Shown: piece after piece, positions 463-10,888 of the stretch
How the letters are laid out: every line of letters begins with the position of its first letter
How positions within the stretch are numbered: position 1 is the first letter of the stretch
NCBI GenBank assembly: GCA_040752415.1
Contig: JBFMGU010000326.1
Span: 1-10,888 of the forward strand
Source: Myxococcota bacterium
GTDB lineage: Bacteria; Myxococcota; JACRCW01
DNA: 10,888 nt
Direction of reading: 5' to 3'
The notes under the pieces: model-generated
Seen by the model: only the letters and a program-made list of their open reading frames with translations
Database searches by the model: none
What the model was told of the DNA's origin: nothing
Made by a program: the position numbers and the translations under genes

Positions 463-1290
463 TCAGCCTTTCACCGCGCCCGCCGTCAGCCCACCCACCA
501 GCTGCTTCTGCAGCGCAAAGAACAACGCCATCACCGGGATGGAAACCAGGATGGCCCCCGCCGCGAACAGTCCCCACGCCGTGCTCTTGGCGCCCACGTA
601 CTGCGCCAGCACCACCGGCAGCGTGTAGCTGGTCTCCCGGCTCATGAACTTGGCGGCCAGGATGTACTCGTTCCACGCCGTCATGAAGCTGAAGAGCGCG
701 GTGACGGCAATGCCCGGTCGCGCCAGCGGCAGGATGACCTTGGAGAGGATCTGCGCGCGGTTGGCGCCGTCGAGCATGGCGGCCTCCTCGAGGTCCTTGG
801 GCAGGGTGTCAAAGAAGCCCTTCAGCATCCACGTCGAGAACGGAACGCTCGTCGTGGCGTAGACCAGCACCAGGCCCACGAGCTGGTCGAGCAGGTTGAG
901 CCGGTCCAGGATGGCGTAGAGCGGAACCATCATCAGCGTGCCCGGGAACATCTGTGTGAGCAGCATGGCGCTCAGCGTGAGTCGACGACCGGGGAAGCGG
1001 AAGCGGCTCAGCGCGTAGGCAGCCAACGTCGCCAGCAGCACGCCCAACACCGCGGTGGCCAGGGAGACGGAGATGCTGTTGAAGAGCTGGTGGCCAAACA
1101 CCCACGTGCCATCCAGGCTGCTGTTGCCCACCACCTTGCGGAAATTCTCGTCGCTGACCTGCTGCGGGATGGGTGAGAGGCCCACCGCGAACGCCTGCGA
1201 CGGCGTCAGCGCCATGCGGATGACCCACAGCACCGGGTAGATGGTGGCAAAGCTGATGAGCACCAGCGCAACGTGGACAAGGACGTTCAT
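463..1290 (-). CDS. malG: Sugar ABC transporter permease, MalG family (275 aa)
   Basis: Motifs AAYALSRFRFPGR, TQMFPG and the EAA loop LPKDLEEAAMLDGA, plus FMTAWNEY and C-terminal QKQLVGGLTAGAVKG. The start is placed at ATG 1290 (MNVLVH...), 2 nt after the upstream TAG, with GGAG 5 nt upstream. The track's 1518 start overlaps the upstream gene by over 200 nt. Confidence 0.93.
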   Translation of the reverse strand: MNVLVHVALVLISFATIYPVLWVIRMALTPSQAFAVGLSPIPQQVSDENFRKVVGNSSLDGTWVFGHQLFNSISVSLATAVLGVLLATLAAYALSRFRFPGRRLTLSAMLLTQMFPGTLMMVPLYAILDRLNLLDQLVGLVLVYATTSVPFSTWMLKGFFDTLPKDLEEAAMLDGANRAQILSKVILPLARPGIAVTALFSFMTAWNEYILAAKFMSRETSYTLPVVLAQYVGAKSTAWGLFAAGAILVSIPVMALFFALQKQLVGGLTAGAVKG

Positions 1291-1292
1291 GG

Positions 1293-3524
1293 CTACTCCA
1301 GCGCCTTCTCCAGGCTGCCCGTGACGCGGTTGGTGAACAGCGAGTACCCCAGCAGGATGAGGAAGATCAGCGTGCTGTACGCCGCGCTGAGACCAAACGC
1401 GCCACCGGGCCCACGCTCGAACGCCCAGCGGAACGCCTCGGTGACGAGGAGGTCGGTGCGTCCGTCGGGATTGCCGCCGCTGACCAGGTAGACCACGTTG
1501 AACTGGTTGAAGGTCCACACGCTGCCCAGCAGCACCGCCGGAAGCAGCGCCGGCTTCAAGAGCGGCAGCGTGATGAGTCGGAACTGCTGCGCGCGACTGG
1601 CTCCGTCGAGACGCGCGGCTTCATACAGGTCCGAGGGAATGGACTGCAGCGCGCCCAGGCACACCACCATCATGAACGGGAAGCCCAGCCACGTGTTGGT
1701 GACCAGGTTGGCCAGGAATGCCGTCGTCACCTCGCCCATCCAGCTCATGCCGCGCGTGTTGAGCCCGAACTGCGCCAGCACCTCGTTCACCGCGCCCAGG
1801 TCCGGGTGGAACATGCCCTTCCAGATGAGCGCCGTGATGTAGCTGGGGACCGCCCACGGGATGATGAGCAGCACGCGGTAGAAGCCCTTCAGCTTCAATC
1901 CCTTGATGTTCAGCACCAACGCCAACGCCAGCCCAATCCCCACGTGCAGCGACACATTCAGCACCGTCCAGAACACCGTCATGCCCAGCGTGTACAGGAA
2001 GCGTCCGTCGGTGCCGGAGAGCAGGTCGCGGTAGTTGGCCAGGCCCACGAAGTCCCAGCGCCCGTAGGTGTGCCGGAAGAAACCCATGCCGATCCCGACG
2101 AGGAACGGGCAGAACGTCAGCACCGCCATCGCCACCAGCGCGGGTGACATGTAGACGTAGGCCAGTCGTGTGATGCGCGAATCGAACGTGCTGGAGAGCG
2201 CGCGCGTCATCTGGAGCTTGCGGTTGGTCCACACCCCCGACGCCAACGCCAGTCCCACCATCAGCAGCGTGAATCCGTGGAACGGGCCTTCCTCCTTGGG
2301 AACATCCACCTTGGCCAGCACGCCCTCCACCTTGCCTTGCGCCTCCTTGAGGGCCTCTTCCGCCGTCGTGGAGCCGTGCAGGACCAGGCCAAGCACGTTG
2401 TCCATGGGCGACCAGAGGCTCTTCATCGCCGGCGTGTTGGGCGTGGCGTAGGTGTTGGGGAGCTGGTCGCGGAAGGCCCAGAGAACTTCCCCGTCGGTGC
2501 GGCTGAGACCATCCCACGCGGACTTCAGCGCCACCGGCTGCTTCCCGACGAGAAGCCGTTCCCTCGCACTGGCTTCTCCGGCGAGAAACGCGGCGGCCAT
2601 CATGGCCAGCTCCTGGTTCTTCCCCTTGGCGCTGACGAACACGGCCTCGCTGCTGAGGAACGGGCGCGCGGGCTTTCCGCTCTCGCTGATGATGGGCAGC
2701 GGCGCCACACCGACGGGAATCTTGGGGTCCAGGTCCCCCAGCACCCACGGACCGGTGATGGCCATGGCGGCCTTCCCCTCGCTGAACAGCGCCGTCACCA
2801 GCGCCCCATTCACCTCCTGCGGGACGATCTTCTCCTGCTGCAGGAGCCGCGCGGCGAACTTCACGCTCTCCGCGTTCTCCTTGCTGTCCAGCTTGGGTCT
2901 TCCGTCGTCACCAAAGAGGGAACCGCCGAAGCCGAAGAGCCACGGCGCGTGGAAATAGAGCAGCCCGTTCTCGTAGACGAGGCCGTACTTCCCTTCGTCA
3001 ATGTTCGTGATCTTCCTACCCGCGGCGATCATCTCGTCGGTGGTGCGCGGCGGGGTGGGGAGCAGGTCCTTGCGGTACACCAGCGCCGCGCTCTTGAAGG
3101 CCAGCGGGATACCGTAGAGCTTGCCGCGGTAGATGAGCGGGGTCACCGTCTCGGGGAAGAAGCCGCGCAGCGTGGTCGGGTCCACCTCCCCTTCCATGGG
3201 ACGGAGGATGCCGGCCTCGGCCCAGTCACCAATGGTGTCGTGGGCGAAGATGAAGAGGTCCGGTCCGCGGTTGCGCGGGACCGCCGCGGTGATCTTGTCG
3301 ACGAGCGCGTCGTACGGGATGGCCAGCGGGTCCAGCGTGTATGGGACCGTGGCGTCGTCGTTGAGCCGCTTGGCCAGGTTCTCCAGCGCCTCGCGCTCTG
3401 TGCCGCGGTAGGCGTGCCACAACACCAGCCGCGTGCGACCACTGCTGGCGCCAGCGTCGGGAACCTCGTCGGCGCGCGCGGTGAACGGGAGGAGGAGCAG
3501 CGCTGCCAGGATGAGGCGACGCAT
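1293..3524 (-). CDS. malEF: Fused maltodextrin-type solute-binding protein and permease (MalE-MalF fusion, 743 aa)
   Basis: Signal peptide MRRLILAALLLLPFTARA. MalE-like motifs GPDLFIFAHD, YRKDLLPTPPRT, AMAITGPW and PNTPAMKSLW, then a short linker (~2275-2325). MalF motifs follow: LIIPWAVP, NTWLGFPFMM, EAA loop IPSDLYEAARLDGAS, FNQFNVVYL and TDLLVT. It is one uninterrupted ORF. GGAGG (3536-3532) lies 7 nt before ATG 3524 but only 1 nt before GTG 3530, so 3524 is preferred. Confidence 0.92.
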   Translation of the reverse strand: MRRLILAALLLLPFTARADEVPDAGASSGRTRLVLWHAYRGTEREALENLAKRLNDDATVPYTLDPLAIPYDALVDKITAAVPRNRGPDLFIFAHDTIGDWAEAGILRPMEGEVDPTTLRGFFPETVTPLIYRGKLYGIPLAFKSAALVYRKDLLPTPPRTTDEMIAAGRKITNIDEGKYGLVYENGLLYFHAPWLFGFGGSLFGDDGRPKLDSKENAESVKFAARLLQQEKIVPQEVNGALVTALFSEGKAAMAITGPWVLGDLDPKIPVGVAPLPIISESGKPARPFLSSEAVFVSAKGKNQELAMMAAAFLAGEASARERLLVGKQPVALKSAWDGLSRTDGEVLWAFRDQLPNTYATPNTPAMKSLWSPMDNVLGLVLHGSTTAEEALKEAQGKVEGVLAKVDVPKEEGPFHGFTLLMVGLALASGVWTNRKLQMTRALSSTFDSRITRLAYVYMSPALVAMAVLTFCPFLVGIGMGFFRHTYGRWDFVGLANYRDLLSGTDGRFLYTLGMTVFWTVLNVSLHVGIGLALALVLNIKGLKLKGFYRVLLIIPWAVPSYITALIWKGMFHPDLGAVNEVLAQFGLNTRGMSWMGEVTTAFLANLVTNTWLGFPFMMVVCLGALQSIPSDLYEAARLDGASRAQQFRLITLPLLKPALLPAVLLGSVWTFNQFNVVYLVSGGNPDGRTDLLVTEAFRWAFERGPGGAFGLSAAYSTLIFLILLGYSLFTNRVTGSLEKALE

Positions 3525-3526
3525 CT

Positions 3527-4597
3527 TCACCCCTCCATCCGCACGCCCTTGGCATCGAACAGGTGCGCGCTTCCCTCTTGGACGGACACGGGAACGCGCG
3601 TGCCCGGCTTCGGCTCCTCGCTCCCCACCAGCGACGTGAAATGCGTTCCCCCCAACGTGCCCAGCGCATAGCTCTCCGCGCCCAGGCGCTCCACCACTTC
3701 CACTTCCATCTCGCCCAGCACCTTGCCGTGCTTCCCCACGGTGACGTGCTGCGGACGGATGCCCAGCGTGACCTCACCCGTGCCCCTGGTGTCGACGTCG
3801 ATGAAGAAGCCCTTCCCGCTCACTGTTCCGTCGCTGAGCGTGCCGGGGAGGAAGTTCATGGTCGGCGTGCCCAGGAATCCCGCCACGAACTTGTTGGCCG
3901 GCTTGCGGTACACCTCCAGCGGCGGGCCCACCTGCTGCACGTAACCCTCGGCCATCACCACCACGCGGTCCGCCAGCGTCATGGCTTCCACCTGGTCATG
4001 CGTGACGTAGACGGTGGTGGTCTCGAACCGGCGACGGAGCCGGGCAATCTCCGCGCGCACCTCGCTGCGCAGCTTGGCGTCCAGGTTGCTGAGCGGCTCG
4101 TCGAAGAGGAACGCCTTGGGCTTGCGCACAATGGCGCGACCCATGGCCACGCGCTGCCGTTGTCCGCCGGAGAGCTGGCTGGGTTTGCGGTGCAACAGGT
4201 CCGTGAGGCCCAGGATGCCCGCGGCCTCCTTCACGCGCGTGTCCACCTCGGACTGCGGCGTCTTCCGCACGCGCAGGCCAAACGCAATGTTCTCGTAGAC
4301 GGTGAGGTGCGGATAGAGCGCGTAGCTCTGGAACACCATGGCCACGTCGCGCTCACCGGGGTGGACGGCGTTCACCTTGCGCTCGCCGATGAGGAGGTCC
4401 CCGCTGGTGGGCTCTTCCAGGCCCGCGATCATGCGCAGCGTGGTGCTCTTGCCGCAGCCGGAGGGCCCCACGAGGACCACGAATTCTCCGTCGGCAATCT
4501 CCAGGTCCAGGCGCGCCACGACGACCTTGGGCGCCAGGTTCTTCCGGCTGGCATCCACAAAGCTCTTGGTGACGCCACGAAAAGAGATGCTGGCCAT
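3527..4597 (-). CDS. malK: Sugar ABC transporter ATP-binding protein, MalK/MsmX/UgpC family (356 aa)
   Basis: Walker A GPSGCGKST, Q-loop VFQSYALYPH, signature LSGGQRQR, Walker B FLFDEPLSNLD and H-loop VTHDQ. It also has FVAGFLGTPTMN and a C-terminal TOBE-like region (LGIRPQH, VVERLGAE, HLFD). Confidence 0.95.
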   Translation of the reverse strand: MASISFRGVTKSFVDASRKNLAPKVVVARLDLEIADGEFVVLVGPSGCGKSTTLRMIAGLEEPTSGDLLIGERKVNAVHPGERDVAMVFQSYALYPHLTVYENIAFGLRVRKTPQSEVDTRVKEAAGILGLTDLLHRKPSQLSGGQRQRVAMGRAIVRKPKAFLFDEPLSNLDAKLRSEVRAEIARLRRRFETTTVYVTHDQVEAMTLADRVVVMAEGYVQQVGPPLEVYRKPANKFVAGFLGTPTMNFLPGTLSDGTVSGKGFFIDVDTRGTGEVTLGIRPQHVTVGKHGKVLGEMEVEVVERLGAESYALGTLGGTHFTSLVGSEEPKPGTRVPVSVQEGSAHLFDAKGVRMEG

Positions 4598-4609
4598 GGG
4601 GGAACCTGT

Positions 4610-6853
4610 TCAGAACGACGCGCTGACCGTGGCGATGCTGCGCATCACATGGTTGAGGTGCTGGTTCAGCTCGGGCTTGGAAGTGATCATATCCTTGTTC
4701 AGGTACTCCAACCGATACCAGAAACTCGCCGCGCCCATGACGTAGCGCGCCTCGACGTGAAGCTTGTTCTTGAACGTGTGGTAGTCGGGATAGTCGGCCA
4801 CGCCCCCCACCACGGCGCCGCTGCGGTTGAGCTCAAGCCAATAGCTGAAGTCATTGCCCGCGGCGAGCGTGAGGTTGTCCGTCACGGGGTAGTCCACGGC
4901 GGCGCGCAGGAAGAACAGGTGCCCGTAGTAGTCGTCCTCCGACGGCGTGAAATAGATGCGCCGGCCCTCGGCGTCGTTGGTGCCGGTGTCGCCGGTGGGG
5001 CTGCGCCAGTCGACGTCGAAGATGTACTTGCCCTTGGCGCGCAGCGTGATGCCGCGGAGGACGGGGACGGTGTAGGCGCCCTTGAGCATGGTGATGATGC
5101 TGAAGCGGTTCTGGTTCTGCGCGTAGACGGCGCGCGGGTCACGACCGCGGTCATTGGTGTTGGCGAACGTGTAGAAGTCCGTGTCCGTCATGCCCTCGTT
5201 GTAGAGGAAATCCGGGTACACGCTGCGCGTGTTGCGACCATTGCGACACATGCCCGGCTCCCAGATGGGGTCCACCGGGAGCGCGTTGATGATCTGCTGT
5301 TCCACGTCGACACCGGAGCGCTGCAGGTCGGTCTGTCCGGGGAAGCAGGTGTTGGTGTTGTAGTAGATGCCGGTGAGCTCCCCGAGGATCTGGCTGGTGC
5401 CGGGCGCCCACTCTCCCTGCAGCGTGACGCCGTGCCAGCCCACCGCGCTCTCGTAGAACGGGTCGACGAAGTCCTGGAACTCATTGGCCACGTTCAGCGT
5501 GGGGACCTGGCCGCCTTCAATGAACCCGTCGGTGAGCAGCACGTCCGCCTCCCGACGCGCACCCATCGTCGCCACCCAGTCCGGACCGATGTTGAAATAT
5601 TCGAGGCGGAGGAACGTGGCCCAGCCAAACGGGTCCAGGATCTCTCCGCGCGCAATGGCGGCCCAGCCATAGGCCACGCGGTACGGAATGGGACTGAACC
5701 CCTGGCTCCCCTCGACGGTGTTGAACGCCAGCTTGCGGTTCGGCTCACTGCGACTCACGCCCAACAGCGCCGTGCCCTTGAGCCACTCCCACTCCGCCTT
5801 TCCCGCAACGGTGCTGTTGAGATTGGTGTAGCGGAGGTTCGTCTGCACCACGCCGTCGCGCTCGTCGATCACGTTGTCGCTGCCAATGGCGTCGGGGTCG
5901 TCGGTGTCGGCCTCCTCGTCGACAATGAAGCTGTTGACGTTCTCCAGCTGCAGGTAGCGCCAGGGCTCGGTGGTGAACTTGGCAACGTAGACGGCGTCAC
6001 GCGCCCAGAAGGGGTTCTGCACCAGCGGGTCCTGGATGCCGGTGTTGTATCCCGCCGACGCGTACAGCTTGGGCAGCGCCACCCGCGCGAAGTGGTAGCT
6101 GAACCAGCGCTTGTACCCGCCGTCCAGGAAGATGCCGCGCGCGTTGTCGCGGTCGATGTAGCGCTGTTTCCCGACGGTGAAGGAGTTGAACTGGCCCAGG
6201 TCGCTGCTGCCGAAGTGCACGTAGCGCACCGTGGGGATGGGCGGGGCGGCGCGGATGAAGACGCCACGAAGCTGCATGTACGCCGCGTGGTCCATGCCCA
6301 GCGACTGTCCCGATCCGTCGATGCGACCGAAGTTGCCACTCACGGGGTCAATGCGACGGTCGCCGTTCTCGTAGAAGTCGGCCCACTGCATGCCCCAGCG
6401 GGAGGCCACGCGCGCGCCCGCCTCCACCTGGTCCCCCACGCGACCATTGAAGAGCAGCTGCAGCTCGCTGGCCGCGCCGTTGTTGCCGGAGAAGTTGTCG
6501 CCTTGCGGGTTGGGCGTGCCCCAGGTGACCGCGCCGTTGCTCTGGTCATTCTGGAAGAGCAGCTTGTTGTAGATGTCCGCGCGCATGGTCAGCGACGGAG
6601 GCGGAGGCGGCGGAGGAGCCAGGGCCGCCTGGTCCGCGCTGTACTGCTGCAGCCGCGCCTCGATGAGCTGCTCCACGTACGCCTGCTGTTCCGGCGTGAG
6701 CGGCGGTGGAGGCTGCGCGGTGTCGGCGGGGGGCGTGGTGGCGTCCTGGGCGCGTGCCGGGGATGAAGACAGCGCGGCCAGGAGGCTCAACGACGCGACG
6801 GAAAGGGACGGCCAGCGGGGCAAGTGCACCGTTGGGCGCGGAGTGTTGAGCAT
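4610..6853 (-). CDS. Putative outer-membrane beta-barrel protein of unassigned family (747 aa); candidate carbohydrate channel
   Basis: Signal peptide ends ...LSLLAALSSSPARA/QD, followed by a Pro-rich and helical N-terminal stretch. There are many amphipathic, aromatic-rich strands (e.g. FWYRLEYL, LFFLRAAVDY, LRLEYFNI) and no long hydrophobic helix in the mature part. The C-terminus IATVSASF matches the terminal-Phe beta-signal. The start at ATG 6853 has AGAGG upstream. The ORF is secure; the function is inferred. Confidence 0.75.
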   Translation of the reverse strand: MLNTPRPTVHLPRWPSLSVASLSLLAALSSSPARAQDATTPPADTAQPPPPLTPEQQAYVEQLIEARLQQYSADQAALAPPPPPPPSLTMRADIYNKLLFQNDQSNGAVTWGTPNPQGDNFSGNNGAASELQLLFNGRVGDQVEAGARVASRWGMQWADFYENGDRRIDPVSGNFGRIDGSGQSLGMDHAAYMQLRGVFIRAAPPIPTVRYVHFGSSDLGQFNSFTVGKQRYIDRDNARGIFLDGGYKRWFSYHFARVALPKLYASAGYNTGIQDPLVQNPFWARDAVYVAKFTTEPWRYLQLENVNSFIVDEEADTDDPDAIGSDNVIDERDGVVQTNLRYTNLNSTVAGKAEWEWLKGTALLGVSRSEPNRKLAFNTVEGSQGFSPIPYRVAYGWAAIARGEILDPFGWATFLRLEYFNIGPDWVATMGARREADVLLTDGFIEGGQVPTLNVANEFQDFVDPFYESAVGWHGVTLQGEWAPGTSQILGELTGIYYNTNTCFPGQTDLQRSGVDVEQQIINALPVDPIWEPGMCRNGRNTRSVYPDFLYNEGMTDTDFYTFANTNDRGRDPRAVYAQNQNRFSIITMLKGAYTVPVLRGITLRAKGKYIFDVDWRSPTGDTGTNDAEGRRIYFTPSEDDYYGHLFFLRAAVDYPVTDNLTLAAGNDFSYWLELNRSGAVVGGVADYPDYHTFKNKLHVEARYVMGAASFWYRLEYLNKDMITSKPELNQHLNHVMRSIATVSASF

Positions 6854-6861
6854 GTCTGACG

Positions 6862-6939
6862 GGTTCCTCTCGCGTCGTCGACCGATGGATGACCCAGGAA
6901 CCGACCCACCGCCCCGCATTCATCCGCGACGGCGGGCGG
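6862..6939 (-). promoter_or_regulatory. Two tandem stem-loops in the intercistronic leader of the beta-barrel gene; the second overlaps its likely RBS
   Basis: On the minus-strand mRNA, CCGCCCGC (6939-6932) pairs with GCGGGGCGG (6917-6909, 1-nt bulge). GGTTCCT (6902-6896) pairs perfectly with AGGAACC (6868-6862), which includes the AGGA of the putative Shine-Dalgarno. Confidence 0.35.
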
Positions 6940-6961: not shown

Positions 6962-7768
6962 TCAGCCGCCGTAGACCATGGGCAGCACGGGCTTGGCCCA
7001 CTTGTCCTTGTTGGGCTTGAGGAGCTTGTGCTGCGCGTCCTTCTCGGCGTCACCGCCCTTGGCCGGGGAGACCAGCATGTCCATGAAGTGCGGGTCGTCG
7101 TCGGCGTCCATGCCGCCGCCAAAGCGGTGCGGCCCCTCGAACTCGTTGACCTTGCGGTTCAGCACGTCCTTGGCGTCGGGGTAGCCCTCGTTGGAGGACA
7201 CCAGGGCCTGCCAGCCCCAGGAGGCCTTCGGCTCACCCAGGTCCTTCTTGCTCACCAGCGCGGTGATGGTCTTGCCCTTGGCGCTGACGGAGCGGGGCAC
7301 CACCAACATCGCCTTGTGCTTGGGGCTCTTCTGGGCCACCTCGGAGCGGACGCGCGCGGCGGGCTGCGGGGAGATGAGGATGACCTTCTCGAACGCACTC
7401 TCGTCGGCAAACGTGGCGTTCATGCCAGCAATGGCCTGCGTCTCACCGCTCTTGGGCTTGTGGTCGGTGTCCACGTAGACCTGCACGAACTGCGTGGAGA
7501 AGTTGGCACCGCCCTGCTTGGCCATGCCCCACGGATCCTCGATGGAGGCGTCGAACGTGAGGTCGATCTGGATGTCCGGACCGGCCTCCTTCACGCTCAT
7601 CTCGACGAGATCAAAGCTGCCGCGCGTGTACACGGCGTCGGTGGGATAGGTGTAGCTGCCGGGGCCGTCGTCGTCACCCTTGGGGTCCTTGAGGGTGACG
7701 GAGAAGGCGGCGTGGGCGGGAAGCGCGTGGGTGAGCAGCGCCAGGATCAGGAGAGGAGAAAAGCGCAT
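6962..7768 (-). CDS. Secreted stand-alone glucodextranase C-terminal / DOMON-like domain protein (268 aa)
   Basis: Signal peptide MRFSPLLILALLTHALPAHA. Signature DPKGDDDGPGSYTYPT...GSFDL, then DPWG...NFSTQFVQVYVDTD and RFGGG...DPHFMDML. These motifs are characteristic of the Glucodextran_C/DOMON-like module found in glucodextranases and GH57 amylopullulanases. GGAGG (7779-7775) lies 6 nt before ATG 7768. Confidence 0.88.
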   Translation of the reverse strand: MRFSPLLILALLTHALPAHAAFSVTLKDPKGDDDGPGSYTYPTDAVYTRGSFDLVEMSVKEAGPDIQIDLTFDASIEDPWGMAKQGGANFSTQFVQVYVDTDHKPKSGETQAIAGMNATFADESAFEKVILISPQPAARVRSEVAQKSPKHKAMLVVPRSVSAKGKTITALVSKKDLGEPKASWGWQALVSSNEGYPDAKDVLNRKVNEFEGPHRFGGGMDADDDPHFMDMLVSPAKGGDAEKDAQHKLLKPNKDKWAKPVLPMVYGG

Positions 7769-7868: not shown

Positions 7869-8834
7869 TCAGCCCTTCTTCTTCTGCTGCTTGCGGGAGA
7901 GCTCCTGGATTTCCCCGCTGCTGAGCAGGCTGCAGAAGGCCACTTCCGCCACGTGGGTGTCGTCCTTGCGGTCGCCCAGGTACACGCTGTCCACGCGCAG
8001 GACCATCTTCACCACCTCGGGCTCCGCCACCTTGATGAAACGCATCTCCGGCTTGTTGGCAAAGCTGACCTCCGTCTTGTTCCCCGCGAGGTCAATGCCC
8101 AGGTCGGCGAAGTCCAGGTTGGCGGAGGTGTCGCCGGTGGTGCTCTGCGTGCTCACCTCCAGGACCGCGCGGTGGATGCGGTTGAAGTCCCGGAAATCCC
8201 GTTGTCCGGTGCCCTTGCCCGGGTACACTGCCATCAGGCCCACGCCCACCGGCTTGGGAAACTCGAAGGTCAGCGACTCCCCGATCCCCGTCCCCGACGC
8301 ACCCTCCGCCCAGCTCGTCGTGATGTCCTGGTCGTAGACGTTCTTGACGTCGGCGTTGTCGGTGCGGACGGTGCTGGAGGCCTTGAGCTTGATGCCCCCG
8401 AAGGGATCCCCCGCGTCGCCACGGAGGCCCAGCTCCTTGCCCAGCGTGAGCGTGAGCGGGCGCAGGTCATCCGCGGCGCGGTCTCCGCGTGCAAGCTGCA
8501 GGTTCAGCTCCTTGCCCTGCACGCCCACGTCGGCGGGATAGGTGTCCTCCAGCAGCACGCAACCGGCGTTGCGCAGCACCCCGCCCTTCTGCTTGAGCAC
8601 CAGGATTCCCCCAGCGGTGTTGCCGTCGTCCTGGCGGTCGCGAAAGGCGAGGAGCGTCTCCTTGAGGACGTCGCCGTCGAGGTCCACGTCCAGCACCTTG
8701 GTGATGCGGTAGTCGCGCGCCAGGGCTTCATACTCGGGCGTGGCCTTGTACGGGCCGTCCTCGGCGCCACGGACCGCCCCCACGGCCAGTGTGGCAACCA
8801 GGGGAAGCAGACGGGAGACGAGGTGACGACGCAT
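7869..8834 (-). CDS. Secreted protein with a C-terminal discoidin-like (NADase-type glycan-binding / F5/8 type C-like) domain (321 aa)
   Basis: Signal peptide MRRHLVSRLLPLVATLAVGAVRGA and a Ca-binding-like loop DVDLDGDVLKE. The C-terminal motif series KASST...NVYDQDITTSWAEGASGTGIGESLTFEF...FNR...LRVDSVYLGDRKDDTHVAEVAF matches that fold family. ATG 8834 is preferred over the in-frame TTG 8843. Confidence 0.78.
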   Translation of the reverse strand: MRRHLVSRLLPLVATLAVGAVRGAEDGPYKATPEYEALARDYRITKVLDVDLDGDVLKETLLAFRDRQDDGNTAGGILVLKQKGGVLRNAGCVLLEDTYPADVGVQGKELNLQLARGDRAADDLRPLTLTLGKELGLRGDAGDPFGGIKLKASSTVRTDNADVKNVYDQDITTSWAEGASGTGIGESLTFEFPKPVGVGLMAVYPGKGTGQRDFRDFNRIHRAVLEVSTQSTTGDTSANLDFADLGIDLAGNKTEVSFANKPEMRFIKVAEPEVVKMVLRVDSVYLGDRKDDTHVAEVAFCSLLSSGEIQELSRKQQKKKG

Positions 8835-8888
8835 GGCTCTCAAGGGCTCTGGGTATCGGCCGGGGGTGGGGATGAGTTTCCGGGCCTG

Positions 8889-8916
8889 ATCATGCTCGCT
8901 TGGGCGTGGGGGTCAA
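8889..8916 (-). promoter_or_regulatory. Candidate sigma70-type promoter for the discoidin-domain gene
   Basis: Minus strand TTGACC (8916-8911), a 16-nt spacer, then CATGAT (8894-8889). Confidence 0.4.
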
Positions 8917-8990: not shown

Positions 8991-10721
8991 ATGCCAGGTG
9001 GTCGAGAGCGGCGCGGCGGAGGGTTCCTGTTTTCATCCCGTCTGGACGAGACGGTGTTCACGCCGGAGATGTTCACGGCGGATCAACTTGCGCTGCACGA
9101 CACCGTGGCGGCGTTCACCGCCAAGGAGGTCATTCCCCGCACTCCCGAGCTGGAGCGCAAGGAGCCGGGCCTGCTTCCGTCGCTGCTGCGCAAGATGGGG
9201 GAGCTGGGCGGCCTGGGCCTCGACGTGCCCGAGGAATACGGCGGCACCGGCCAGTCCAAGGTGACCAGCATGCTGGTGAGTGAGGCCACGAGCCAGGAAG
9301 CCAATTGGACGGTGACATTTGGCGCGCACACCGGCATCGGTTCGCTGCCCATCGTCTTCTTCGGGAACGCGGAGCAGAAGGCGCGCTATCTGCCCAAGCT
9401 GGCGACGGGAGAATGGGTGGCGGCCTATGCGTTGACGGAGAGCGGCAGCGGCTCCGACGCATTGAATGCCCGCGCCACCGCGCGGCTCTCCTCCGACGGG
9501 AAACACTGGATCCTCAACGGCCAGAAGCAATGGATCACCAACGCGGGCTTCGCGGACGTGTTCACGGTGTTCGCCAAGATCGACGGGGAGCGGTTCAGCG
9601 CGTTCATCGTGGAGAAGGGCTACCCGGGCGTCTCGGTGGGGCCGGAGGAGAACAAGCTGGGCATCCGTGGCTCGTCGACGCGCACGCTGATTCTCGAGGA
9701 CACGCCGGTGCCGGTGGGCAACCTGCTGGGAGAGGCGGGCAAGGGCCACAAGATTGCGTTCAACATCCTGAACGTGGGGCGGCTGAAGCTGGGGATCTTC
9801 GCCGTGGGCGGCGTGAAGTCCATCCTGAAGCAGGGGTTGAAGTACCCGCAGGAGCGCAAGCAGTTCGGCAAGCCCATCATCGAGTTCGGACTGATCCGGG
9901 AGAAGCTGAGCAACATCATCGTCGACCTCTACGCGCTGGAGGCCATGGGCTACCGCGCGGCCGGCGGCATCGACGAGTTCATTGCCGAGACGAGCAAGGG
10001 CATGGAGGGGCTGGAGGAGTTCAACGTGGAGAGCTCCATCCTGAAGGTGTACGGCTCGGAGCTGCTCTTCCGCACCGCCGACGAGGCGCTGCAGATCCTC
10101 GGCGGGTACGGCTACATGGAGGACTACCCGGTGGCCAAGGTGTACCGGGACGTGCGCATCAACCGCATCTTCGAGGGCACCAACGAGATCAACCGCATGC
10201 TCGTCCCCGGCGTGATCCTGAAGCGCGCCATGAAGGGCGAGTTGCCGCTCATGGACGAGTACACCGCCTTGGACCCCGACAACGTCCCCACCTACCGCCT
10301 CCCCGACGCGCCCCTGGCCCGCGCCACCGAGCAGGCCCGCATCCTCGCCGTGGTGCTCACCGGCAAGGCGGTGGCCAAGCACATGATGGAGCTGGAGAAC
10401 CAGCAGGAGATCCTCGCCGCGCTGGCCGACGTCATGATGAGCGCGTACGCGCTGGACAGCGTGCGTCGACGGGTGGCGCACACCGGCGGCGCACCGGATC
10501 ACCAGCTGCTGGGTGAGACGTTTGCCGCCGGTGAGGTGGACCGCGTCATTGCGCGCGCTTCCCGACTGGCACTGGACCTGGGCGGACCGGAGCTGCGCAA
10601 GCAGTTGTCGACGGTGCTGGAGCCGTTGCCGCTGAACCGCATGGAGGGGCTGAGGCAGGTGGCCACCGCGCTCGTCGAGCACAATGGGTACTGGCTGGGC
10701 GCGAGCGCACCGAGGAAGTGA
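8991..10721 (+). CDS. fadE: Acyl-CoA dehydrogenase, long form with C-terminal extension (FadE/YusJ, VLCAD/ACAD9-like; 576 aa)
   Basis: N-terminal GGGFL...VFTPEMF, then AYALTESGSGSDA, NGQKQWITNAG, KLGIRGSST, ERKQFG, GGYGYMEDY and RIFEGTNEINR with the catalytic Glu. An extra C-terminal helical domain contains QQEILAALAD. GGAGG lies 7 nt before the ATG. Confidence 0.93.
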   Translation: MPGGRERRGGGFLFSSRLDETVFTPEMFTADQLALHDTVAAFTAKEVIPRTPELERKEPGLLPSLLRKMGELGGLGLDVPEEYGGTGQSKVTSMLVSEATSQEANWTVTFGAHTGIGSLPIVFFGNAEQKARYLPKLATGEWVAAYALTESGSGSDALNARATARLSSDGKHWILNGQKQWITNAGFADVFTVFAKIDGERFSAFIVEKGYPGVSVGPEENKLGIRGSSTRTLILEDTPVPVGNLLGEAGKGHKIAFNILNVGRLKLGIFAVGGVKSILKQGLKYPQERKQFGKPIIEFGLIREKLSNIIVDLYALEAMGYRAAGGIDEFIAETSKGMEGLEEFNVESSILKVYGSELLFRTADEALQILGGYGYMEDYPVAKVYRDVRINRIFEGTNEINRMLVPGVILKRAMKGELPLMDEYTALDPDNVPTYRLPDAPLARATEQARILAVVLTGKAVAKHMMELENQQEILAALADVMMSAYALDSVRRRVAHTGGAPDHQLLGETFAAGEVDRVIARASRLALDLGGPELRKQLSTVLEPLPLNRMEGLRQVATALVEHNGYWLGASAPRK

Positions 10722-10730
10722 CAACGGGCC

Positions 10731-10756
10731 GGCCCACGTCGTCGACCGGGGCCTTT
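10731..10756 (+). terminator. Weak candidate intrinsic terminator after the acyl-CoA dehydrogenase
   Basis: GGCCC (10731-10735) pairs with GGGCC (10749-10753), with an inner GTC/GAC pairing, followed by TTT. The stem is imperfect and the U-tract is short. Confidence 0.3.
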
Positions 10757-10888
10757 CCCCCTCCCCCTCCCACTCCCGGGAAGTCAGAGGACCAGGCTCA
10801 AAACGTTCATCCCACGTCGCCGAGCGCGCATGTGCCGCCGTTGGGGACAGACGCGGCACCCAGCGGCCCTCTGACTTCCCGGGAGGGG
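10757..10888. repeat. Extragenic inverted-repeat element (REP/MITE-like), probably continuing past the window end
   Basis: CTCCCGGGAAGTCAGAGG (10773-10790) is the exact reverse complement of CCTCTGACTTCCCGGGAG (10868-10885), with a 77-bp spacer. Pairing resumes outward after one mismatch up to the last base. The left arm is preceded by hexamer-like units CCCCCT CCCCCT (10757-10768). Confidence 0.8.

Follow-up and report, generated by a model that had tools for sequence, protein, structure and literature searches.

A candidate outer-membrane maltodextrin channel family of Myxococcota, unrelated in sequence to LamB and paired with a Glucodextran_C protein

Fragments of starch and glycogen cross the outer membrane by two well-understood routes, LamB-type maltoporins and TonB-dependent transporters such as SusC or MalA. 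Which protein, then, admits maltodextrins in an operon where a gene for a large beta-barrel of neither kind lies beside malK? The question is raised by contig JBFMGU010000326.1 (assembly GCA_040752415.1) of an uncultured Myxococcota bacterium whose genome spans 11.0 Mb, is 96.8% complete and has ~66% G+C. The whole contig, 10,888 bp, is the window analyzed here, and in it a 747-residue barrel protein is encoded directly upstream of malK, as an earlier note on this DNA had said, with its stop codon 12 bp from the malK-like start at 4597. We find that the protein represents a new family by sequence, that its gene is paired with one for an exported Glucodextran_C protein, and that true LamB occupies the same operon slot in other genomes. 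The barrel is likely to be a LamB-analogous outer-membrane channel for maltodextrins or alpha-glucans, served by a partner that is probably periplasmic.

The open reading frame (ORF) of the barrel covers 4610-6919 on the minus strand and would give 769 residues, and the ATG at 6853, with GAGAGGA 11 nt upstream, gives 747. The gene and the parts of its product are:

4610..6853, minus strand: barrel protein, 747 residues, stop codon included; the subject of this analysis
6749..6853, minus strand: putative signal peptide, residues 1-35, with cleavage between ARA and QD; read by eye from the sequence
6593..6748, minus strand: N-terminal extension, residues 36-87, Pro-rich, with a short amphipathic helix-like segment EQQAYVEQLIEARLQQY followed by poly-Pro
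4613..6592, minus strand: barrel region, residues 88-747, from the covariation and hydrophobic-phase model
5435..5590, minus strand: loop L7, residues 422-473 (GARREADVLLTDGF...TLNVANEFQDF), the most conserved element and a covariation hub
5108..5359, minus strand: loop L8, residues 499-582 (...YPDFLYNEGMTDTDFYTFANTNDRGRDPR...), the longest loop, between strands 15 and 16
4613..4642, minus strand: C-terminal beta-signal strand RSIATVSASF, residues 738-747, whose terminal F is nearly invariant

The earlier note had read from this protein a signal peptide, a terminal beta-signal IATVSASF, abundant Trp, Tyr and Phe, and two Asp/Asn-rich segments, and all four readings hold. The putative signal peptide has a positive n-region and the h-region LSVASLSLLAAL; the last strand matches the family's C-terminal consensus RSIAxVSASF, the end of a Corallococcus relative being KAFMKAQF. 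A signal peptide together with an aromatic-ended C-terminal beta-signal is the generic mark of outer-membrane barrels assembled by BAM. Trp, Tyr and Phe make up 12.6% of the mature protein and Asp and Asn 13.3%, and there are two Cys. The Asp/Asn-rich segments, at residues 452-468 and 556-574, are the family's most conserved motifs; the patterns picked for the search for related loci were ANEF[QIM]D[FW]x[ED] and [FY]ANT[NT]DRGR. The 52-residue N-terminal extension is specific to the window's clade, more distant relatives matching only from residue ~87-94, and in some relatives a fused Glucodextran_C domain and its linker take the place of the extension.

The gene belongs to a real family, with 397 homologues at E≤1e-3 among 8000 candidates; every homologue that bears a source name is called 'hypothetical protein', and among the 120 homologues listed the sole Pfam domain is PF09985 (Glucodextran_C), present in three fused forms of ~960 aa. 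A profile search of 1.84 billion representatives returned only 216 proteins at E≤1e-3. Among 301 sampled Myxococcota genomes the family profile matches 91, a tally that includes the unpublished genome G195, which enters no other result. A distant branch, 28% identical (E 8e-51), has among its members a 732-aa protein found unchanged in public Corallococcus records; the public Corallococcus entries for relatives read 'hypothetical protein', plus one automatic 'Porin' label.

By sequence, the barrel protein belongs to no described family. Pfam gave no match to Plug, TonB_dep_Rec, LamB or OprB at E≤0.1 for the window protein or at E≤5 for any of 48 family members (alignment A1), and a weak-hit Pfam scan of those 48 turned up no consistently recurring family. 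NCBIfam had no match to the protein, and neither did the general porin profiles Porin_4, OprB and OMP_b-brl; among 32 distant relatives, one (P0250) passes Porin_4 with 29.5 bits (cut-off 27) and one (P0148) matches OMP_b-brl at E 0.009, below that family's cut-off. Searches of the PDB, whose entries include LamB chains, with the single protein, the A1 family profile and a superfamily profile (A3) yielded no barrel or meaningful match. The only PDB match of the A1 profile under E 0.01 (4aly, E 0.007) was rejected, as it aligns to the low-complexity N-terminus. In hhalign, A3 scored a probability of 0.6% against a six-sequence LamB alignment and 0.5% against seven DUF6029 (PF19494) proteins. 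The nearest neighbors in a protein language model, an unnamed Myxococcota cluster, an 'alginate export'-named cluster (0.97) and DUF6029 (0.94-0.95), are a lead only. These searches bear out the earlier proposal of a candidate new family with no LamB signature and no TonB box or plug. A full-length match to a characterized family, named beforehand as the observation that would overturn the proposal, was looked for in Pfam, NCBIfam and the PDB and none was found, nor did the literature searched yield a publication describing the barrel family or its pairing with a Glucodextran_C protein.

The barrel gene is preceded in the window by that of its partner:

6962..7768, minus strand: exported Glucodextran_C partner protein (PF09985, E 5.7e-48), with a plain signal peptide and no lipobox

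The window thus carries the two-gene module, and the pairing recurs across the family. In a sample of 80 loci (L001-L080) from species genomes, a homologue of the partner (P0005) is present in 58, and in 56 of these its gene shares the strand of the barrel gene and ends no more than ~250 nt before it; 7 of the 22 loci that lack it have less than 110 nt of upstream sequence. Seeding the search with the partner gave the converse result in metagenomes, where the barrel lies directly downstream in 54 of the 63 loci having at least 400 nt of downstream sequence. Of 146 motif-bearing PF09985 domains, 105 are followed by the barrel, 8 by LamB and 18 by neither, the other 15 lying on loci too short to tell, among which there are two further LamB matches. 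Fourteen of the 18 followed by neither form a separate clade of second paralogues that lie after the barrel; such trios are found in L088, L089, L180 and at least 12 metagenome loci. The window genome has a single PF09985 gene, with malK in the place of a second paralogue. Its variant of the module combines a single partner with the Pro-rich N-terminal extension and a MalE-MalF fusion.

In four natural fusions (P0124-P0126, P0148) the partner and the barrel are one protein, in the order signal peptide, Glucodextran_C domain, Pro/Ala/Lys-rich linker of 30-45 aa, and barrel. Among 135 distinct partner N-termini, a hydrophobic run of plain signal type with no lipobox is present in 111, and about six look convincingly like those of lipoproteins. 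Since the partner is mostly soluble and exported, and can be fused by a flexible linker to the N-terminus of the barrel, its location is most simply, and probably, periplasmic. Its closest relative and only PDB match is domain C of the Arthrobacter globiformis glucodextranase (1ug9/1ulv, PF09985), to which it aligns over the whole domain (E 1e-21), sharing the motifs DPxGDDxGPG and HRFGGG. Unlike the enzyme, the partner stands alone as an exported protein or is fused to the barrel, and it lacks catalytic domains; the barrel itself is not related to glucodextranase. Among 14 well-known control genomes, a PF09985 match occurs only in Thermus thermophilus. Two loci have a FadL/TodX-family outer-membrane gene directly upstream of the Glucodextran_C gene (L026:5508-7022, L061:5639-7159).

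The clearest indication of function comes from loci in which the channel beside the partner is LamB. In the 28%-identical branch, a Corallococcus locus (L088) and one from a 12-Mb genome (L089) read GH13-malK-malE-malF-malG-Glucodextran_C-barrel-Glucodextran_C(2)...GH13. In G165 and G059, complete 5-Mb genomes from a different genus, the order is GH13-malK-malE-malF-malG-Glucodextran_C-LamB-PUD-domain protein...GH13, so that LamB there occupies the slot, after malG and the Glucodextran_C gene, that the new barrel has in the Corallococcus-type loci; this Glucodextran_C gene is the only PF09985 gene of either genome. At least malG-Glucodextran_C-LamB is found in the metagenome loci L129, L131, L136 and L137, with a PUD-domain gene after LamB in L137, and L119 has a LamB-type C-terminus, judged by eye. 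LamB in these loci matches PF02264 at E about 1e-100. A third genome of the genus of G165 and G059 (G197) carries the new barrel, in the order GH13-Glucodextran_C-new barrel-lipoprotein-lipoprotein-Glucodextran_C(2), and other barrel loci carry GH13, GH57, GH77 and further Glucodextran_C genes. The window genome has no LamB match and at least 10 places with GH13. That the same partner serves LamB or the new barrel at the same operon place is the strongest argument for the barrel doing LamB's job, and it lends strength to the earlier suggestion, made from the position next to malK, that the barrel may supply the maltodextrin transporter.

The arrangement of a true LamB after a Glucodextran_C gene, followed by a small PUD (PF03714) protein, is seen at L137:336-3980, L179 and L181 (the last two from G165 and G059), and such an accessory pair for LamB was not found in the literature searched. 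In L088, the second Glucodextran_C gene is separated from the distal GH13 gene by an insertion, positions 11430-14135, that encodes an AHH-nuclease-domain protein and an Imm11/SUFU immunity-type protein.

What might the protein look like? We modeled its strands from covariation, by mean-field direct-coupling analysis of 260 distinct full-length family members (effective number of sequences, Meff, 141; 591 columns), together with an alternating-hydrophobicity profile; the result is a strand model and not a predicted three-dimensional structure. It places 22 up-down antiparallel strands in residues 88-747. The 10 even connections are without exception turns of 2-7 aa and the 11 odd ones loops of 16-84 aa, so that the model follows the classical arrangement, with short turns on the periplasmic side and long loops outside. 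The 95th percentile of the scores of 209 non-consecutive pairs is exceeded by 18 of the 21 pairs of consecutive strands. In 18 of 21 ladders the registry given by covariation matches the hydrophobic phase, placing residues of similar hydrophobicity across from one another; shifted by one, it does so in only 4 of 21. The top 80 couplings join adjacent strands (24), loops on the same side (31), a strand and a loop or turn (18), non-adjacent strands (6), and a turn and a loop (1). The covariation model accordingly has what a barrel calls for: an even number of strands, antiparallel and amphipathic, with short turns and long loops. In a Corallococcus relative (P0278) strand 1 starts ~5 residues past the signal peptide, which, the extension being clade-specific, leaves no room for a plug. 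The modeled fold is an up-down antiparallel outer-membrane sheet of about 22 strands without a plug, which we infer to close into a barrel.

Two loops stand out. L7 holds RREADVLLTDGF and TLNVANEFQDF, is at least 90% conserved at 20 of its 52 positions, and has covariation partners among the top 80 couplings in L1, L3, L4, L5, L6, L8, L9 and L11. L8 holds FANTNDRGRDPR and makes an excursion of 84 residues from one strand to the next, strands 15 and 16 being directly paired (489-592, 490-589, 495-584, 497-584); its residue 562 pairs with L1, L2, L6 and L10. A hub such as L7 and an excursion such as L8 behave as expected of loops folded into or over the lumen, and the model makes L7 a candidate in-folded constriction loop. 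The earlier note had placed the two Asp/Asn-rich segments between strands and supposed that they could fold into the pore; they map to L7 and L8.

From these elements we propose that the barrel is the outer-membrane entry for maltodextrins and short alpha-glucans and would feed the MalE-MalF/MalG/MalK importer encoded downstream. The lumen would be constricted by L7 and L8, long outer loops that are highly conserved, charged and aromatic and that would take the role of the constriction and polar tracks of LamB, and a chain would cross it by passive diffusion. The soluble exported Glucodextran_C protein, tied on in some relatives by a Pro/Ala-rich linker, would dock at the N-terminal end of the barrel and take over or retain the glucan chain as it comes through.

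The known system nearest in function and operon position is LamB with E. coli malK-lamB-malM. Both proteins are outer-membrane components encoded inside a maltodextrin ATP-binding cassette (ABC) importer operon, in the window beside malK, and both are co-encoded with an exported accessory protein, which for the new barrel is the Glucodextran_C protein and not MalM, an accessory protein whose function is, to our knowledge, unknown. Yet the barrel does not belong with LamB (PF02264), having no sequence or profile similarity to it. LamB has ~420 aa in its mature form, 18 strands and an aromatic greasy slide; the new barrel, much longer as the earlier note had said, has ~710 aa and ~22 modeled strands, and its long L7 and L8 would stand in for the L3-type constriction of LamB.

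TonB-dependent transporters have 22 strands, and SusC of Bacteroides and MalA of Caulobacter resemble the new protein in being large barrels with the same modeled strand number. The TonB-dependent glycan transporters share with it the proposed role in starch-chain uptake and partners of glycan-binding type, including a lipoprotein in 44 of the 80 loci. However, the new barrel has no plug, TonB box or family match (Plug PF07715, TonB_dep_Rec PF00593), and where SusC systems have a SusD-type lipoprotein its partner is a mostly soluble exported protein. DUF6029 and the Wzi- and Wzp-type barrels of myxobacteria are close in the language model and are likewise glycan-handling outer-membrane barrels of Myxococcota. 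According to PMC9603273, these barrels are 18-stranded and lie in export loci beside OPX genes; the new barrel is found in import loci, and the profile-profile comparison with DUF6029 given above separates the two.

Several observations weigh against the channel reading. Most family members do not adjoin mal genes, a fact the earlier note had not seen: a MalK-like gene (at least 54% identity) lies within 8 kb in only 12 of the 80 genome loci, GH13 in 7, full-length GH57 in four and GH77 in one, and many barrel loci adjoin unrelated genes (DnaK/DnaJ, kinases, regulators). LamB-family genes exceed the Pfam cut-off in 75 of the 301 sampled Myxococcota genomes, and many genomes carry both LamB and the barrel (G217, G012 and G005, for example), so the two are not simply alternatives and genome-wide mutual exclusion is ruled out. 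A quick tree of 144 partner domains puts those associated with LamB in a single group nested among the barrel-associated ones (unstarred support 86-91), and this nesting is unsupported by an approximately unbiased (AU) test on 40 rows (p 0.47); the test did not reject the barrel-associated partners as one clade, so the data fit a swap between LamB and barrel in either direction. As for the fold, the strand limits were partly drawn from the same covariation map, which makes the enrichment of paired strands partly circular. The ladder that would close strand 1 onto strand 22 scored 1.27, ranking 42 of 209 non-consecutive pairs, which is not significant; its best position, 99 with 738, is a physically sensible registry though the pairing is unsupported.

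A bolder version of the mechanism is possible, and we hold it with much less confidence than the channel reading itself. The plugless 22-strand barrel, its lumen shaped by L7 and L8, would form with the partner a two-part, TonB-free glycan gate, in which the DOMON-like Glucodextran_C protein, free or fused, works on the periplasmic mouth to pull or ratchet long alpha-glucans. If this is true, starch would have a third way in, next to the diffusion slits of LamB and the SusC/TonB-powered transport. A related explanation, which we regard as unlikely, is that of a gated or energized glycan translocon for long alpha-glucans, as opposed to a passive porin. Here the partner or fused domain would open and close the plugless barrel of ~22 strands, or the Pro-rich N-terminal extension would couple it to an inner-membrane component, in the window the tethered MalE-MalF fusion. 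The modeled strand count equals that of TonB-dependent transporters, the near-obligatory partner is sometimes fused at the N-terminus, where their plugs sit, and the window's clade has both a Pro-rich, helix-bearing extension and the MalE-MalF fusion. But the barrel lacks a TonB box and does not resemble plug domains, most of the family is without the extension, ExbBD and TonB genes are missing from the neighbors scanned, and the same partner also accompanies true LamB, a porin that needs no gate.

The remaining explanations give the barrel another job, and none of them is at all probable. It is very unlikely to be an export porin for an alpha-glucan or exopolysaccharide made by the cell, in the manner of AlgE, PgaA, BcsC or Wzp, with the partner as periplasmic chaperone of the outgoing chain. 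GH13, GH57 and GH77 do also serve glycogen metabolism, the language-model neighbors include the 'alginate export'-named cluster and DUF6029, and PMC9603273 uses HHpred to connect DUF6029 with Wzi-type barrels that have no plug and are encoded near genes for polysaccharide export. The operon partners, however, make up an ABC importer that has a MalE-type binding protein, and a synthase or a Wzx/Wzy or OPX export set is not among them; hhalign against DUF6029 gave next to nothing, and it is an import porin, LamB, that takes the same slot. LamB being a pure channel, this slot also tells against an enzyme or lectin embedded in the outer membrane, whose acidic loops would form a surface glycoside-hydrolase or glycan-binding site. 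We give that reading slightly less credence still, despite a conservation of Asp, Glu and Arg in L3, L5 and L7 that is extreme for a porin, and despite the myxobacterial precedent of GluM, described as an outer-membrane beta-barrel beta-1,6-glucanase of Corallococcus in the reviews PMC10800785 and PMC10433427. The loci already carry dedicated amylases, and the names recorded for the Corallococcus relatives point to no enzyme, the one functional label being the automatic 'Porin'.

Least credible is a structural outer-membrane protein tethered to the wall, with an 'SLH-like' Glucodextran_C domain that would attach to peptidoglycan or to a polymer of the wall. OmpM, SlpA and the cyanobacterial Som porins are tethers that combine an SLH (S-layer homology) domain with a barrel, and in the natural fusions the domain likewise precedes the barrel, with a Pro/Ala-rich linker between them; many loci, moreover, have no sugar genes nearby. 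Yet in two complete genomes the sole PF09985 gene sits between malG and lamB, the only solved relative of the domain is part of an alpha-glucan hydrolase, and a distribution over 91 of 301 genomes of the phylum is patchy for a core envelope tether.

We therefore return to the LamB-analogous channel, and judge the barrel to be a new protein family with a known kind of job and a new partner. It would be a third route for starch and glycogen fragments, sequence-unrelated to the LamB-type and TonB-dependent ones and equipped with a dedicated partner, in about a third of the sampled Myxococcota genomes. Stand-alone Glucodextran_C proteins would gain a concrete role as accessories of either type of outer-membrane maltodextrin channel. 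Carriers include cultured genera (the Corallococcus-type relatives), which opens the family to genetics and electrophysiology.

The family also points to an uncharacterized lipoprotein family as a third component. A ~470-aa lipoprotein is encoded directly downstream of the barrel in 44 of the 80 genome loci (for example L071:9887-11293 and L028:9824-11230); in the window's own clade none lies directly after the barrel. This family (P0275, P0276) has no Pfam match at E≤1, and P0275 has no match in the PDB. Its C-terminal domain (YDDGTNGDE...IWT) is common to GH57 proteins and also occurs in a 1410-aa protein encoded at another place in the window genome, next to a GH13-like gene. On these sequence features the lipoprotein is a candidate surface glycan binder and a possible third component. 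In 14 loci a second lipoprotein of ~335 aa follows (L071:11312-12316).

In the window the module lies in a string of minus-strand genes, in the order NADase-type protein, Glucodextran_C protein, barrel, malK, malE-malF fusion, malG. Besides the barrel and its partner the string comprises:

8889..8916, minus strand: sigma-70-like promoter match, TTGACC-16-CATGAT, 9/12, ahead of the string's first gene; a match to the consensus only
7869..8843, minus strand: exported protein with an NADase-type (F5/8 type C, discoidin-like) glycan-binding domain (PF25302 E 4e-19, NF047619 E 9e-21)
3527..4597, minus strand: MalK/UgpC-type ABC ATPase with MalK OB and TOBE domains (Pfam and NCBIfam)
1293..3530, minus strand: MalE-MalF fusion, in which a solute-binding protein and a MalF-type permease form one chain (SBP_bac_1 at residues 69-321, BPD_transp_1 at 531-736)
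463..1290, minus strand: MalG-type permease (NF008231 MalG, E 5e-52, residues 79-351 of a long ORF)

The promoter-like site is the only one found in the window, where shuffled sequences gave an expectation of 0.6. The NADase-type protein heads the string but is not a conserved part of the module, a homologue adjoining the module in 1 of the 80 loci: in L001 a 787-aa relative precedes it. The genes malK and malE-malF overlap. For MalG the likely start is the ATG at 1290, the ORF as listed extending to 1518.

MalE and MalF are joined in one 745-aa ORF, which matches NCBIfam models for both (NF007011 MalE, NF008232 MalF), and a match of fusion length is also present in the closely related loci L001, L002, L007, L008 and L011; in the Corallococcus-type loci the two are separate genes. 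Its fusion to the MalF-type permease would anchor the MalE-type binding protein at the inner membrane.

Diverging from the string on the plus strand is an acyl-CoA dehydrogenase gene, identified by Pfam. Two long ORFs, 3563-6766 on the plus strand (1067 aa) and 9033-10886 on the minus strand (617 aa), were dismissed as shadow frames of high-G+C DNA, antisense to real genes. At the contig edge, positions 1-444 on the plus strand hold a Gly-rich ORF that runs in from outside and has a faint match (E 0.089) to the N-terminal model of the gliding protein AgmC.

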